Below are positions 16,504 to 20,804 of a stretch of 36,666 nucleotides of DNA, piece by piece. Each line of letters begins with the position of its first letter. Position 1 is the first letter of the stretch. Under the pieces are notes generated by a model. That model saw only the letters and a program-made list of their open reading frames with translations. It was not told the DNA's origin and did no database searches. Origin of the DNA: a virus. A program made the translations under genes and the position numbers. Location: the IMG/VR virus record IMGVR_UViG_3300012348_000044, positions 1 to 36,666 of that record, one strand, 5' to 3'.

Positions 16504-17364
16504 ATGACCGCACCAACGCTCAAACTATCCCAATTGCCTGAAGCCGCAGCGTTGACCGGCGCTGAACTGGTGCCAGTCGTTCAGGGTGGCGTGACAAAGC
16601 GCACAACAACCGCCAAGCTGATTCCGCTGCCAGCTGATGGCGTTCAATTCAACACGGCCATCACGCCTGTCGTTGGCGTTGGAAAAATGCAATGGGACAC
16701 CACATGGGGCGGCCCTCAAATAGGCATGATCGGTGGCAACGTCAATTTGCAAATTGGCCAAGAAACGCTGATCTATGTTTACAACGGAACCGGTGCAACA
16801 ATCACAGAGCGTCAAATGGTTTACGTTGATGGCTCACAAGGGCAGCGGCTGAAGGTTGCATTGGCAATTGCATCGTCTGATGAAACATCGGCGGCAATCC
16901 TTGGCATGGCGACAGAAAACATTGCGCACGGCCAATCAGGATTCGTGACTACCCAGGGCATGGTCAACAACATCAGCACGGTTGGTTTTTCTGATGGCGA
17001 TGTGATTTGGTTGTCTCCAACAACGCCAGGAGGCATCACAAACGTCAAACCAGTCGCACCCAATCACTTGGTCATGTGTGGCTATGTGGTCAAAGGCGGC
17101 AGCGGTGGAGGGTCAATCTACATCCACACGCAGAACGGCTACGAGATTGATGAACTGCATGATGTCAAGATCACATCAGTAGCCGCAAAGCAGTTGCTGA
17201 CGCGCAACGCAGCAAACACCTACTGGGAGAATTCCAGTGTTTTGCCATTGCCAAACACCACTGCGCCAGCAACACCAACGGATGGCGGCGTCCTTTACGT
17301 TGAGGATGGCGCTTTGAAATACAAAGGCTCAAGCGGTACGATCACAGTGATTGCACCGGCATAA
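16504..17364 (+). CDS. Fibre / spike-like virion protein
   Basis: N-terminal [28 protein letters not shown] and C-terminal [24 protein letters not shown] are motifs I associate with phage fibre proteins. Function inferred only. Confidence 0.5.
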
Positions 17365-17373
17365 GGGGAAGAA

Positions 17374-17721
17374 ATGACAGCAGAATACGATTTGACGATT
17401 CGCCAAGGGTCAACCTTCCTGCAAAACCTTGTTTGGAAAGACTCCGAAGGCGTGCCGGTTGACCTGACTGGCTACGTGGCCAGGATGCAGATTCGCCCGG
17501 CCATTTGCAGTGAGACAGTCATCATTGAATTGACCACTGCCAATGGCCGCATCACATTGGGCGGCAACACTGGCGCGATCACGCTTGAGATTGATGCGAC
17601 AGACACGGCAGCGATCACGCAAGGCGCGGGATTCTATGACCTTGAGCTTGAGTCGTCGTCGGGATTCGTCACGGCCATCATGGCGGGCGCGGTGACAATT
17701 GAGCGCGAGGTGACTCGATGA
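17374..17721 (+). CDS. Hypothetical beta-sandwich-like structural protein
   Basis: [11 protein letters not shown]...W.D..G.PVDLTGY.ARMQIR pattern, which is often found next to fibre genes. AAGGGGAAG RBS. Confidence 0.4.
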
Positions 17722-18686
17722 CCATTGTAGTAACCGAAGAAAACACAATCGTCATCACGCAGGACGTGGCATCGACAATTGAGGTGGCGGGCGTTGGCCC
17801 GCAAGGCCCACAAGGCCCTCAAGGTGAGCAAGGCATCCAAGGTTTGACAGGCCCGCAGGGTGCAACCGGCCCTCAAGGCCCGCAGGGCATTCAAGGCCTG
17901 AAAGGTGACAAAGGCGACACAGGCGACACCGGCCCAACGGGAGCCACTGGCCCGCAGGGGCCGCAGGGCATCCAAGGGATCCAAGGCGAAACTGGAGCCA
18001 CTGGTGCGACCGGCGCAACTGGGCCTCAAGGCCCGCAGGGTATTCAAGGCGAAACCGGCGCAACTGGGCCTGATGGCTTAAGTGCGTATGAAGTCGCAAT
18101 CGCCAATGGGTTTGTTGGCACTGAAGCTCAATGGCTTGCGTCATTGGTCGGCCCACAAGGTGATCAAGGCATCCAAGGCATCCAGGGTATTCAAGGCATC
18201 CAAGGTGAAACCGGCCCCCAAGGCGAGACGGGCCCGCAAGGCCCACAAGGGATTCAGGGGATTCAAGGGGAGACTGGCGCAACTGGGGCCACAGGTGCCA
18301 CTGGCGCGACCGGAGCGACTGGCGCTGATGGCGATTCAGCTTATCAGGTGGCGGTGGCAAATGGCTTTGTCGGCACTGAAGCCGAGTGGCTTGCATCGCT
18401 TGTCGGCCCGCAAGGCCCGCAGGGTGATCAAGGCCCGCAGGGTATTCAGGGGATTCAGGGCATCCAGGGTATTCAGGGGGAAACCGGAGCCACAGGCGCT
18501 ACTGGTGCAACTGGCCCAGGCGTGGCCGTGGGCGGTACAGCTGGACAGGCTTTGGTCAAAGCAAGCGGCACAGACTACGACACGACATGGGCGACTTTGT
18601 TTGCCGGAGGTCTGACCAAGATTGAGAAAGTCACGGCACTGCCTGGAAGCCCTGACGCAACAACGCTTTACATCGTATCGCCATGA
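17718..18686 (+). CDS. Collagen-like triple-helix repeat fibre protein
   Basis: 64 G-X-Y triplets ([12 protein letters not shown] and others) in three blocks of 31, 20 and 13. The blocks are separated by the duplicated spacer (L/D)SAY(E/Q)VA(I/V)ANGFVGTEA(Q/E)WLASLV. C-terminal globular domain [22 protein letters not shown]. Confidence 0.85.
17796..18521 (+). repeat. 9-nt periodic coding repeats (G-X-Y) with a module duplication of about 255 nt
   Basis: Runs such as ggcatccaaggcatccagggtattcaaggcatccaaggtgaaacc. The spacer-plus-GIQ module at about 18076-18200 is repeated at about 18331-18480. Confidence 0.85.
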
Positions 18687-18853
18687 AAATCGACTTTGAA
18701 TTTCAGACTGAACACGGCCTGTTCCGAGATGCCTTGCACCTGCCTGACGATCACGGACTGACAGAGGAGCAGATTGAGGCGATGAAGACTGAGCGCCGCG
18801 ACAACTGGATTGCCGTGGTGACTGCTCCTGTTGAGGAGCCAGATAATGGCTAA
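18683..18853 (+). CDS. Hypothetical small acidic protein (56 aa) between the two fibre genes
   Basis: [60 protein letters not shown] overlap upstream and an 8-nt overlap downstream. Not in the ORF track. The position suggests a fibre chaperone, but this is unproven. Confidence 0.4.
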
Positions 18854-20804
18854 CCGATATTGGGTAGGAGGCACAGGTACATGGAGTAACACAAACACCA
18901 CAAACTGGTCTGCGACATCTGGAGGTGCCGGAGGCGCTTCGGTCCCTACGGCTACCGATACCCCTTTTTTTGACACCAACTCTGGAAGCGGAACGGTTAC
19001 ACGCACCAGCTCATTTACGGTCGGTGAAATCGAGATCAATAACTCCGGGATTACTTTAAGTCTCGGTGCGGCACTCACGTTAAACGCTGCTGCTGACTCG
19101 ATCAGTGTTACCAACGGCACCTTCACCACCAACAACTACACCGTCACTGCTGGCAACATTGTTACAGGTGCAGGAGGCACGTCTAGGACCATCAACTTAG
19201 GGAGCAGTACTGTAACCCTTTCTAACACAGCAGCCGCTATTGGTTTCACCGATTCAAACGGGCTTACATTCAACGCAGGCACATCACAGATCAACTGCAC
19301 CGCAACTAGCAGTGCGTTTAACGGCGGAGGGAATACGTTCTACAACGTGGCCTTGACCAACGTGTCTAAGACTGCATGGACAGTAGCAGGGACTAACACC
19401 TTTAATAACTTCGCTGTTACAGGGCGAACAGCTGCTGGTATCTCGCTCATTAACTTTAGTGCTAACCAAGTTATCAACGGCACTCTGACGCTCTCCACAG
19501 GAACCAACGCCACAATGCGGACGTTTGTGCGCTCAGATGTCATCGGCACCACCCGCACACTGACCTGCGCTGCTGTTGCATCGCCGACTGACATTGACTT
19601 CCGTGACATTGAGATTGCTGGTGCTGCTGCTCCTGTCAGCGGTACCCGCTTGGGTGACTGCAAAGGCAACAGCGGGATTACGTTCCCTGCGGCTAAGACG
19701 GTTTATTGGCGGGCAACCGGCTCCGCAAACTGGGGCGCAACCACAAGCAGTTGGTCGTTGACTTCTGGCGGAACCGCTGACCACGCGGCATTTCCGCTGG
19801 CGCAAGATACTGCTGTTTTTCCAGCGGCCACATACCCGGCTTCTGGCTCAACCGTTACGGTCAACGCCACCTACAACATTGGCACTATTGACATGAGTGC
19901 CCGCACCAGCAACACAATGACGCTGGCAACAGGCGCTCCTCCAGTAATCTACGGAAACTGGGTTAATGGAACTGGTACGGCGCTAAGTGGATTGCAGAAC
20001 TTGAGGTTCTCAGGTCGTGGAAGTCAGACAATTACGAGTGCCGGTAAGACGTTTACTCATCCGATCATTGTCGATACGCCAAGCGGTTCAGTTACGTTGC
20101 AGGATGCGTTCACTAGCTCCAACAGCACATCGTCAGCGTTAAACCCTCAAGCGGGGACGTTTAGCGATGGCGGCTACGCAGTCACATTGTCTGGGGCGTC
20201 CAGTGGTGTCAACACATCAAACACAGGCGTAAGAACAATCAACGTAGGGGCAACCTGGACTCTGGGCGGTACTGCGGGATGGAACGCAGGAGTATCCACC
20301 AACCTCACCGTCACCGGCATAGGCACAATCAGCCTCACATCTCCCATTGCCAAGACCTTTGCAGGCGGCGGTATCCAGACCTACCCCACACTGAACCAAG
20401 GGGGCACTGGCACGCTGACGATCACTGGCTCCAACAAGTTCGCCAACATCACCAACACAGCCGTCGGCAGGGTTCAATTCACTGGCGGTACGACCAACGA
20501 GTTCACGGCGTTTAACTTAAACGGTGTATTGGGTAACTTGTTGCAAGTCGGCTCAACCGACACCACTCAGGCGATTCTGAAAAAGCCAACCGCATGGAAT
20601 GTCGGTCTGCTTTCGACTGATGCGGGTAACAACACTGGGTTGAGCTTCACAGGAACAGACCCGAACTATCTAAGCATCAGCTACATCAACGGTCAGTTGT
20701 CTCTGACATCGAGCGTCTATTATGGCGCTACAAACATCACGGCCATATACTACGGGTCAACGCCAGTCAGTGCCATTTACTATGGCGCAGATCAGGTATT
20801 TTGA
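18846..20804 (+). CDS. Thr/Gly/Asn/Ser-rich beta-helix-type fibre or adhesin-like protein
   Basis: N-terminus [43 protein letters not shown]. Long low-complexity T/G/S/N/A sequence with recurring short G-T/N-rich beta-strand-like segments. ATG 18846 has a GAGGAG RBS. Confidence 0.55.
   Translation: MANRYWVGGTGTWSNTNTTNWSATSGGAGGASVPTATDTPFFDTNSGSGTVTRTSSFTVGEIEINNSGITLSLGAALTLNAAADSISVTNGTFTTNNYTVTAGNIVTGAGGTSRTINLGSSTVTLSNTAAAIGFTDSNGLTFNAGTSQINCTATSSAFNGGGNTFYNVALTNVSKTAWTVAGTNTFNNFAVTGRTAAGISLINFSANQVINGTLTLSTGTNATMRTFVRSDVIGTTRTLTCAAVASPTDIDFRDIEIAGAAAPVSGTRLGDCKGNSGITFPAAKTVYWRATGSANWGATTSSWSLTSGGTADHAAFPLAQDTAVFPAATYPASGSTVTVNATYNIGTIDMSARTSNTMTLATGAPPVIYGNWVNGTGTALSGLQNLRFSGRGSQTITSAGKTFTHPIIVDTPSGSVTLQDAFTSSNSTSSALNPQAGTFSDGGYAVTLSGASSGVNTSNTGVRTINVGATWTLGGTAGWNAGVSTNLTVTGIGTISLTSPIAKTFAGGGIQTYPTLNQGGTGTLTITGSNKFANITNTAVGRVQFTGGTTNEFTAFNLNGVLGNLLQVGSTDTTQAILKKPTAWNVGLLSTDAGNNTGLSFTGTDPNYLSISYINGQLSLTSSVYYGATNITAIYYGSTPVSAIYYGADQVF

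Follow-up and report, generated by a model that had tools for sequence, protein, structure and literature searches.

The 36,666-nucleotide IMG/VR virus record IMGVR_UViG_3300012348_000044, analysed here at its full length and called the window, is the whole genome of a siphovirus-type phage in which five open reading frames (ORFs) lie between the large terminase gene (terL) and the portal gene. Judging from the genes alone, this 4.3-kb cassette probably encodes variable host-adhesion fibres of the tail-fibre type, horizontally exchanged at a non-canonical hotspot. We observed directly its gene content, the family relationships of its products, its obligate gene pairs and its replacement among relatives. 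The ORF list and the domain matches bear out the five ORFs of the first-pass annotation at the coordinates it gave, named here by product length in amino acids and listed with the two genes that flank them:

15246-16469, plus strand: terL, left conserved flank, 407 amino acids, matching Terminase_3 (1.9e-20) and Terminase_3C (1.6e-19)
16504-17364, plus strand: g286, 286 amino acids, putative short fibre or spike protein
17374-17721, plus strand: g115, 115 amino acids, LtfC-like beta-sandwich, putative collar or anchor protein
17718-18686, plus strand: g322, 322 amino acids, collagen protein, putative proximal fibre segment or adaptor
18683-18853, plus strand: g56, 56 amino acids, small acidic protein, candidate connector or assembly factor
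18846-20804 (or from 18831), plus strand: g652, 652 amino acids, putative distal fibre, candidate receptor- or glycan-binding part
20814-22103, plus strand: portal gene, right conserved flank, matching Phage_portal (5.9e-59)

The genes are all co-oriented and tightly packed, with successive spacings from terL through the five ORFs to the portal gene of 34, 9, -4, -4, -8 and 9 nucleotides. We found no convincing terminator inside the cassette, and the first strong one lies at 24842-24865, after the capsid gene. The start of g652 can be placed at a mechanically chosen TTG (18831, giving 657 amino acids) or at an ATG (18846, giving 652), and the ATG was also chosen by an independent gene call on the same contig. 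The first-pass descriptions of the products, namely a beta-sandwich for g115, collagen for g322, acidity for g56 and richness in Thr and Gly for g652, agree with our results, as does its premise that terL and the portal gene are ordinarily neighbours. Portal identity to the nearest cultured phages is ~42%; the two genes are adjacent in Pseudoalteromonas phage PHS21, and only three tiny ORFs separate them in Idiomarinaceae phage 1N2-2.

To follow the cassette within its own lineage, we used as close relatives 15 IMG/VR loci whose portal is ~90% identical to that of the window (L-numbers label the compared loci and contigs). The gap between terL and the portal gene was 3.3-4.5 kb in every close relative covering the interval, and its content differed, with at least four cassette types among these relatives and a further arrangement in a locus whose upstream end is cut:

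Type A (window, L005, L006/L012, L014, L019): g286-like protein (166, 241 or 286 amino acids), g115, collagen protein, g56, g652 homologue (648-706 amino acids)
Type B (L009/L007): g241, g115, 767-amino-acid collagen/YadA-head-like fibre, 104-amino-acid protein, GT2-TPR glycosyltransferase
Type C (L011, L013): 89-amino-acid protein, g241, unrelated protein of 648-768 amino acids, small protein; without g115
Type D (L017): g286, g115, 574-amino-acid collagen/Gly-rich fibre, 102-amino-acid protein
L010 (upstream end cut): protein of at least 599 amino acids with three ConA-like lectin repeats, and a Phage_tail_APC chaperone (3.7e-23)

Among relatives with full-length matches, the flanking genes were uniformly conserved (terL 88-94% identical, portal 89-92%, protease 82-97%, major capsid protein [MCP] 86-95%), whereas the cassette proteins in most relatives were 30-68% identical (g115 77-80%, g56 79-92%) or absent. 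The exceptions were g286, at 96% in L017 and 88% in L019, and two further proteins of L017, which also retains g115 at 98% and a truncated g322 match at 90%. In comparisons with relatives of other cassette types, nucleotide homology ended at 16491-16593 and resumed at about 20855, that is, at the terL stop and the portal start. Since the interval is filled in all covering relatives and homology breaks at these two points, the slot is fixed in the lineage and its content exchanged. A simple presence/absence insertion was rejected, the slot being filled in every close relative covering the interval. The first-pass annotation had proposed a mobile host-range cassette and a comparison with relatives to see whether it varies as a unit. 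The variable content between conserved flanks, the LtfC-like g115, the chaperone of L010 and the occurrence of these modules in tail-fibre slots (see below) support its proposal well, but not in the sense of a block that is present in some relatives and absent from others: because every covering close relative has the slot filled, "mobile" here can only mean content exchange at a fixed hotspot.

In L006 (4678-6060) and L017 (2754-4136), a different terL of 460 amino acids replaces the 407-amino-acid Terminase_3 type, with the portal 91-98% identical and cassette and portal collinear, so the terminase gene itself has been swapped beside the hotspot. The locus might have no meaning for assembly at all and persist only because conserved terL and portal genes make efficient recombination anchors. 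This account is compatible with exchangeable fibres of the tail type, and we regard it as plausible while leaning somewhat away from it. Breakpoints at gene borders, the exchange of terL in these two loci and the presence of the same modules in many different slots of other lineages all fit it. A purely neutral account, however, does not predict that adjacency to the portal gene should recur in several unrelated head-module types, as we found.

The g115 protein is supported as an LtfC-like protein, that is, a member of the family of the T5/DT57C collar that anchors lateral tail fibres. The assignment as a putative anchor follows from the agreement of Pfam, PHROG, Foldseek and a profile search of PDB sequences. 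Against Pfam LtfC (PF23926), g115 itself scored 19.4 bits (E 0.0016), below the 27-bit cutoff, and 20 of 38 g115 homologues matched the family at E <= 0.01, the best at 1.2e-6. A further match, at 6e-8, is to the PHROG entry phrog_3304, labelled "L-shaped tail fiber protein assembly". The AlphaFold2 model is a compact single-domain beta-sandwich with a predicted local distance difference test score of 95.9, and its top PDB fold match by Foldseek is 8hqz_Q, the LtfC chain of DT57C (E 2.5e-7, template modelling [TM] score 0.78 by query and 0.66 by target). The g115 family profile, searched against PDB sequences, matched 26dk_M (6e-19), DT57C LtfC (0.005) and T5 p132 (0.021). Over the 90 residues tested, 26dk_M is identical to ORF087 of Pseudomonas podovirus KPP25, a g115-like protein that bears the annotation "structural protein"; KPP25/Cootes may be the phage from which entry 26dk derives. 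The LtfC of DT57C assembles into a dodecameric collar, and the lateral fibre LtfA adds its N-terminal strands to the sheets of this collar (PMC10713586).

The neighbourhood of g115 homologues follows a recurrent pattern. Across 80 IMG/VR loci carrying a g115 homologue, the gene that follows usually overlaps the stop codon of the homologue and typically encodes alternating beta-strand repeats (xVVVxE...IEV), then GPQG, then collagen or another shaft. By synteny only, a G-X-Y run falls within the first 120 residues of the downstream ORF in 25 of 69 such loci, and many of the others share the beta-repeat start. In the window, g322 overlaps the g115 stop codon and begins with a 23-residue segment (letters not shown) followed by collagen, so that its predicted product fits this start pattern. 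Genomes of siphovirus, podovirus and myovirus type together yielded more than 550 g115 homologues. The homologue in the cultured Acidovorax phage AP1 stands after the tape measure and tip proteins and before a tail-fibre assembly protein and the lysis genes, and one in a Variovorax paradoxus prophage lies just 5' of holin and lysozyme genes. As a separate observation, in several podovirus-like genomes or prophages the g115 homologue comes directly after a gene for a giant protein of 2,000-3,100 amino acids (L020, 1-8893; L163, 3423-9944; L180, 2653-8913; KPP25 ORF088, L192); the giant protein 5' of the Variovorax homologue carries InPase and LPD1/LPD3 polyvalent-protein domains.

The remaining three genes of the cassette form a block that recurs outside the lineage. 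The g322 protein matches Collagen (PF01391) at 1.6e-31, with G-X-Y runs at residues 27-122, 145-207 and 230-268, and is laid out as N-terminal beta-strand repeats, collagen with two non-collagen interruptions of ~27 amino acids, and a conserved C-terminal motif (27 residues, letters not shown). The same motif ends adaptors with other N-termini, among them the T7 tail-fibre N-terminal domain; no protein of the window matches that domain (Phage_T7_tail, PF03906). In general, the protein encoded 5' of g56 has a lineage-specific N-terminus (T7 tail domain, coiled coil, Mtd_N domain or g115-type beta repeats) and a C-terminus of one of two conserved types, and for this reason, together with the contexts in which the block occurs, we take it to be an adaptor. 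The g56 protein has an isoelectric point of 4.4, and its gene immediately precedes a g652 homologue wherever a surveyed IMG/VR locus includes the upstream sequence (54-92% identity). Its family comprises 280 clusters at 50% identity and has no credible annotation in Pfam and no match in PHROG; a Pfam match to DUF2673 (5e-5) was set aside as probably spurious.

The g652 protein, which is rich in Thr (18%), Gly (13%), Ser and Asn, matched nothing in Pfam, PHROG or the PDB sequences, although more than 4,400 homologues were found, some of which the Joint Genome Institute (JGI) names "fibronectin-binding autotransporter adhesin". As read from the sequence, it would be a beta-helix of two units, each opening with W-x-G-G...NW...SGG...P...D...F: near residue 5 the motif is W-V-G-G-T-G-T-W...NWSATSGG...P...D...F, and near residue 293 it is YWRATGSANWG...WSLTSGG...FPLAQDTAVF. 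Some homologues (L072, L075, L078) are giant fusions of 1,500-2,500 amino acids. Copies of g652 in the window's own lineage share only 59-68% identity with that of the window, against 75% for the copy in L031, a T7-like contig; this is direct evidence of horizontal exchange.

The surroundings of the block in other phages argue for its identity as a tail fibre. In L031, nozzle and core proteins are followed by a 493-amino-acid protein, g56 (89%), g652 (75%) and then the terminase. The 493-amino-acid adaptor combines a Phage_T7_tail N-terminal domain (1.2e-34) with collagen and the same C-terminal motif as g322, ending in 25 residues whose letters are not shown; by gene order and domains, the block is in the slot of gp17. 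Lambda-like contigs have the tape measure, a gpJ-like protein, a collagen protein, g56, g652 and a glycosyltransferase in this order, and SU10-like contigs carry the block 3' of the adaptor genes and 5' of a Peptidase_S74 fibre and a lysozyme. Because the block stands in the gp17 slot of a T7-like phage and in lambda-like and SU10-like contexts, we read it as a tail fibre, and the Tfa-type chaperone (Phage_tail_APC) in the same slot of the relative L010 supports this. A GT2-TPR glycosyltransferase gene was seen directly 3' of the fibre genes both in L009 (8892-9998, type B) and in the lambda-like phage L087 (12107-13153); its predicted function may be fibre glycosylation or host-surface modification.

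The same evidence bears on whether these genes encode virion parts at all. They could instead be morons, host-expressed adhesins or exclusion factors that settled in a permissive gap, since unrelated small genes fill the terL-portal gap of other phages and JGI labels some g652 homologues as autotransporter adhesins. We consider this highly improbable: the cassette genes run closely coupled and in one direction in the late structural operon, their products have the look of trimeric fibres (with collagen in the window and Peptidase_S74 chaperone domains in relatives), the g115-like protein of KPP25 is annotated as structural, and the fusion of an adaptor to the T7 tail-fibre domain speaks for a role in the virion.

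The first gene, g286, points in two directions. Its product consists of a conserved N-terminal segment, a central beta-rich domain (~44-246) and a C-terminal tip motif; the N-terminal ~45 amino acids are conserved across every cassette type in the lineage, and the remainder varies among the 166-, 241- and 286-amino-acid variants. Proteins encoded in the tail regions of P22-like and SU10-like podoviruses share the central domain at 46-67% identity; in the contigs of these podoviruses we looked for g115 homologues beside g286 homologues and found none. Family members bear Phage_tail_C, Peptidase_S74, collagen or YadA-stalk domains, and the fold matches in BFVD (1e-24 to 1e-16) are long fibre proteins annotated as intramolecular-chaperone, Mtd_N or collagen. 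In the PDB, however, the best Foldseek matches of the g286 core are the beta-tulip decoration proteins of HFTV1, Adjutor, Pam3, T1 and TW1 and the base of phi29 gp8.5, all of them weak (E 7e-4 to 2e-3, TM ~0.55 by target and ~0.3 by query). A match to Phage_cement_2 (PF09956) also fell below its cutoff (19 vs 24 bits, E 0.0019); this family has a precomputed match on some g286 homologues, and the homologue P0159 matched it when scanned here. The g286 family profile matched no PDB sequence.

These resemblances to decoration proteins feed the alternative that the cassette encodes head or neck fibres, mounted on the capsid like phi29 gp8.5 and SPP1 gp12 or forming whiskers on a 12-fold portal/neck collar, and encoded in the head operon as they are assembled with the head. 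The first-pass annotation had named head fibres or decoration proteins as its second option, which we retain as the weaker one, on the likeness of g286 to beta-tulip proteins and the linkage to the portal gene in unrelated lineages; overall we judge it unlikely. It does have real grounds. The cassette lies within the unit that runs from terL to MCP without an internal terminator, and unrelated lineages carry the same modules inside their head gene blocks. When the 79 loci with a g652 homologue were roughly classified, the g56-g652 pair was in a head gene block in ~30, in a tail-type slot in 10 and unclassified in 39, so that about 30 of 40 classified loci are head-adjacent; several unclassified loci share flanking genes with L078, which has an SU10-like tail arrangement. 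Three head-block positions recurred: the order portal (SU10-type or P22-type), adaptor, g56, g652, scaffold, MCP; g56-g652 after terL in the L043 lineage; and gpA-type terL, a 912-amino-acid protein, three small ORFs, lambda-family portal, g115, fibre and a protease-MCP fusion. Among cultured phages, only Limnohabitans phage DC31 has a g652 homologue, and the context there is ambiguous: the gene stands at one end of the record beside protease, decoration and MCP genes, and a g115-like fibre cluster stands at the opposite end. Collagen-like capsid binders have a known precedent in SPP1 gp12 (PMC7602432), and an LtfC-like 12-mer would fit the 12-fold symmetry of the portal/adaptor region, as we reason from the dodecameric collar described in PMC10713586. 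The gpA-terminase/lambda-portal lineage also has, between terL and portal, a protein of 576-912 amino acids without a Pfam match (L138, 4005-6743; L136, 1449-3179), which may be another fibre-like insertion at a like position.

Several observations speak against head or neck fibres. The T7-like adaptor joins a bona fide tail-attachment domain to the C-terminal motif of g322; the modules also occupy the tail-fibre slots of lambda-like and SU10-like phages, AP1 and a prophage; and a tail-fibre chaperone sits in the same slot of L010. The central domain of g286 is common to phages with unrelated capsids and found there within long fibre proteins, so it is unlikely to be a capsid-specific binding base, and the fold matches to decoration proteins are weak. 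A narrower version, with an LtfC-like 12-mer collar on the 12-fold portal/adaptor region of a siphovirus carrying collagen and beta-helix whiskers, we regard as speculative and rather improbable, although it would explain why g115-fibre and adaptor-g56-g652 modules lie beside the portal gene in at least four unrelated head-module types. If it were true, freshwater phages would have a widespread class of adhesion fibres, the neck-mounted collar whiskers, that is so far undescribed.

Several points weigh against exchangeable fibres of the tail type and temper our confidence in them. The score of g115 is under the Pfam LtfC cutoff, and an Ig-like sandwich is a common fold. The g652 protein is unusually conserved across lineages for a receptor-binding protein, with a mean column identity of 62% across 28 sequences. 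We read the contact between g322 and g652 and the role of g56 from synteny only. The ~30 loci with g56-g652 beside portal, terL or MCP may point to fibres mounted near the head, and in its fold the g286 core is similar to decoration proteins of capsids, the base of the phi29 head fibre among them.

With tail-type fibres as the preferred reading, the parts could be assembled as follows. On the virion, g115 would form an LtfC-like ring, or collar, into which a g322 trimer would dock its N-terminal beta-strand repeats as LtfA does in T5/DT57C, before continuing into a collagen triple helix. At its conserved C-terminal tip, g322 would carry the distal g652 fibre, a putative beta-helix that binds a host surface glycan, with g56 as a possible connector or assembly factor between the two. 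The g286 protein would be a second, short fibre anchored by its lineage-conserved N-terminus. Host range would shift when the whole block or its sub-modules are replaced through homologous recombination in terL and the portal gene. We infer the position on the virion, for which the tail is favoured, as well as the copy number and the ligand of the fibres.

The first-pass annotation also described the conventional tail-tip region as short and lacking a long fibre. This is right as far as it goes: 29748-33126 encodes proteins of 258, 571, 189 and 106 amino acids, followed by lysis genes, and no other long-fibre gene was found elsewhere in the complete genome, early region included. Nevertheless, by its match to phrog_11439, labelled "tail fiber protein" (8e-131), the 571-amino-acid product indicates that the phage does have a tip protein of its own beside the cassette:

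29748-32232, plus strand: tail-tip proteins, 258 amino acids with an F5/8 type C domain and 571 amino acids matching phrog_11439

Among relatives with full-length matches, the tip proteins are 80-90% (258 amino acids) and 86-89% (571 amino acids) identical, on a par with the head genes and unlike the cassette. A second mosaic region was seen in the tail tube and tape measure: the tail tube (26937-27326) has two alleles among relatives, 98% or 58-60% identical, and the tape measure (27850-29751) is only 46-65% identical in relatives while its neighbours are 86-98% identical.

The window was recovered as a single metagenomic contig in Logan ERR3489834. Its positions 1-55 are identical to 36612-36666, and such a 55-nucleotide direct overlap of the ends is typical of circular assemblies, so we take it to be a complete circular assembly of ~36.6 kb. 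Near-identity DNA searches of phage and E. coli collections gave no match, and a scan of GTDB genomes with the portal protein found no prophage relatives. After the portal gene come genes for a MuF-like protein, an S78 protease, an HK97-type capsid protein, connectors, the tail tube, the tape measure (633 amino acids) and the tail-tip proteins, and the late region ends with a holin, an HNH/EndoVII-like gene and an M15 endolysin. The early region codes for ERF, RdgC, an SNF2 helicase-methylase fusion and a DnaB-like helicase. Immediately before terL lies the small terminase gene:

14863-15249: terS

Three other genes drew our attention. A single 731-amino-acid fusion in the early region (5924-8119) joins an SNF2/DEAD-type helicase to an N6/N4 DNA methylase. 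The HNH/endonuclease VII-like gene (33772-34401, 209 amino acids) lies between the holin (33356-33784) and the M15 endolysin (34392-34826). A 78-amino-acid glutaredoxin-like gene (14183-14419) lies just 5' of terS, and its relatives are 53-73% identical.

The cassette is thus a likely host-range determinant of an uncultured phage lineage, exchanged at a fixed hotspot between the two most conserved genes. The large g115 family would extend the T5-type LtfC collar-and-fibre joint to many unrelated phages, and g56-g652 is an obligate gene pair with thousands of members and without a Pfam or PHROG family. An annotation pipeline guided by synteny would overlook receptor-binding genes in the terL-portal position or give them the wrong label. 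Each part is of a known kind: the joint is LtfC-type, the shafts are collagen, the distal receptor-binding fibres are modular, and the locus is a recombination hotspot. Undescribed in the sources searched are a complete multi-fibre cassette between terL and the portal gene of an HK97-type head module, the architecture of collagen adaptor, g56 and g652 with two families outside Pfam and PHROGs, and LtfC-like collar-fibre pairs well beyond T5-like phages.

We searched the literature for tail-fibre genes lying between terminase and portal; no direct precedent emerged, only morons and an analogy to T7 gene 7.3. T7 gene 7.3 and cyanopodovirus gene 23, which serve host range or tail assembly, lie just 5' of the portal gene (PMC5520035). 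As adsorption-related genes immediately 5' of portal, they are the nearest positional precedent found, but they encode single small proteins (~90-100 amino acids) rather than a 4.3-kb multi-fibre cassette. The cassette shares with phi29 gp8.5, the beta-tulip decoration proteins (lambda gpD, TW1, Pam3 cement) and SPP1 gp12 a weak fold likeness in the g286 core, a trimeric fibre character and a location in the head block. It differs from phi29 gp8.5 and the beta-tulip proteins in that the g286 domain is central rather than N-terminal and is common to phages with unrelated capsids (46-67%), in long fibres with tail-fibre chaperone domains.

With the multi-segment tail fibres (T4 gp34-37, lambda Stf/Tfa and T7 gp17 adaptors) the cassette has in common that a proximal adaptor carries a lineage-specific anchor, that the distal receptor-binding part can be exchanged and that small accessory proteins are present. 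The likeness to T7 includes the gp17 N-terminal domain on one adaptor related to g322 (in L031), and that to lambda a Tfa-type chaperone in the slot of L010; no protein of the window matches Phage_tail_APC, the chaperone that in the lambda type is encoded directly 3' of the fibre gene. Unlike in those systems, the small partner g56 is encoded upstream of the distal fibre instead of downstream and matches no known chaperone family.

The comparison with LtfC (p132) and LtfA/pb1 of T5/DT57C also cuts both ways. In place of an alpha-helical coiled coil, the shaft here would be a collagen triple helix; the genes are found outside the tail module, between terL and portal; g115 scores under the Pfam cutoff; and we identified no TTMP-like ring protein. 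On the side of likeness, g115 matches LtfC by hidden Markov model and by fold, the adjacent fibre gene starts with beta-strands that would be able to augment the collar sheets and continues into a trimerising shaft, and in both systems variable fibres are combined with a conserved joint.

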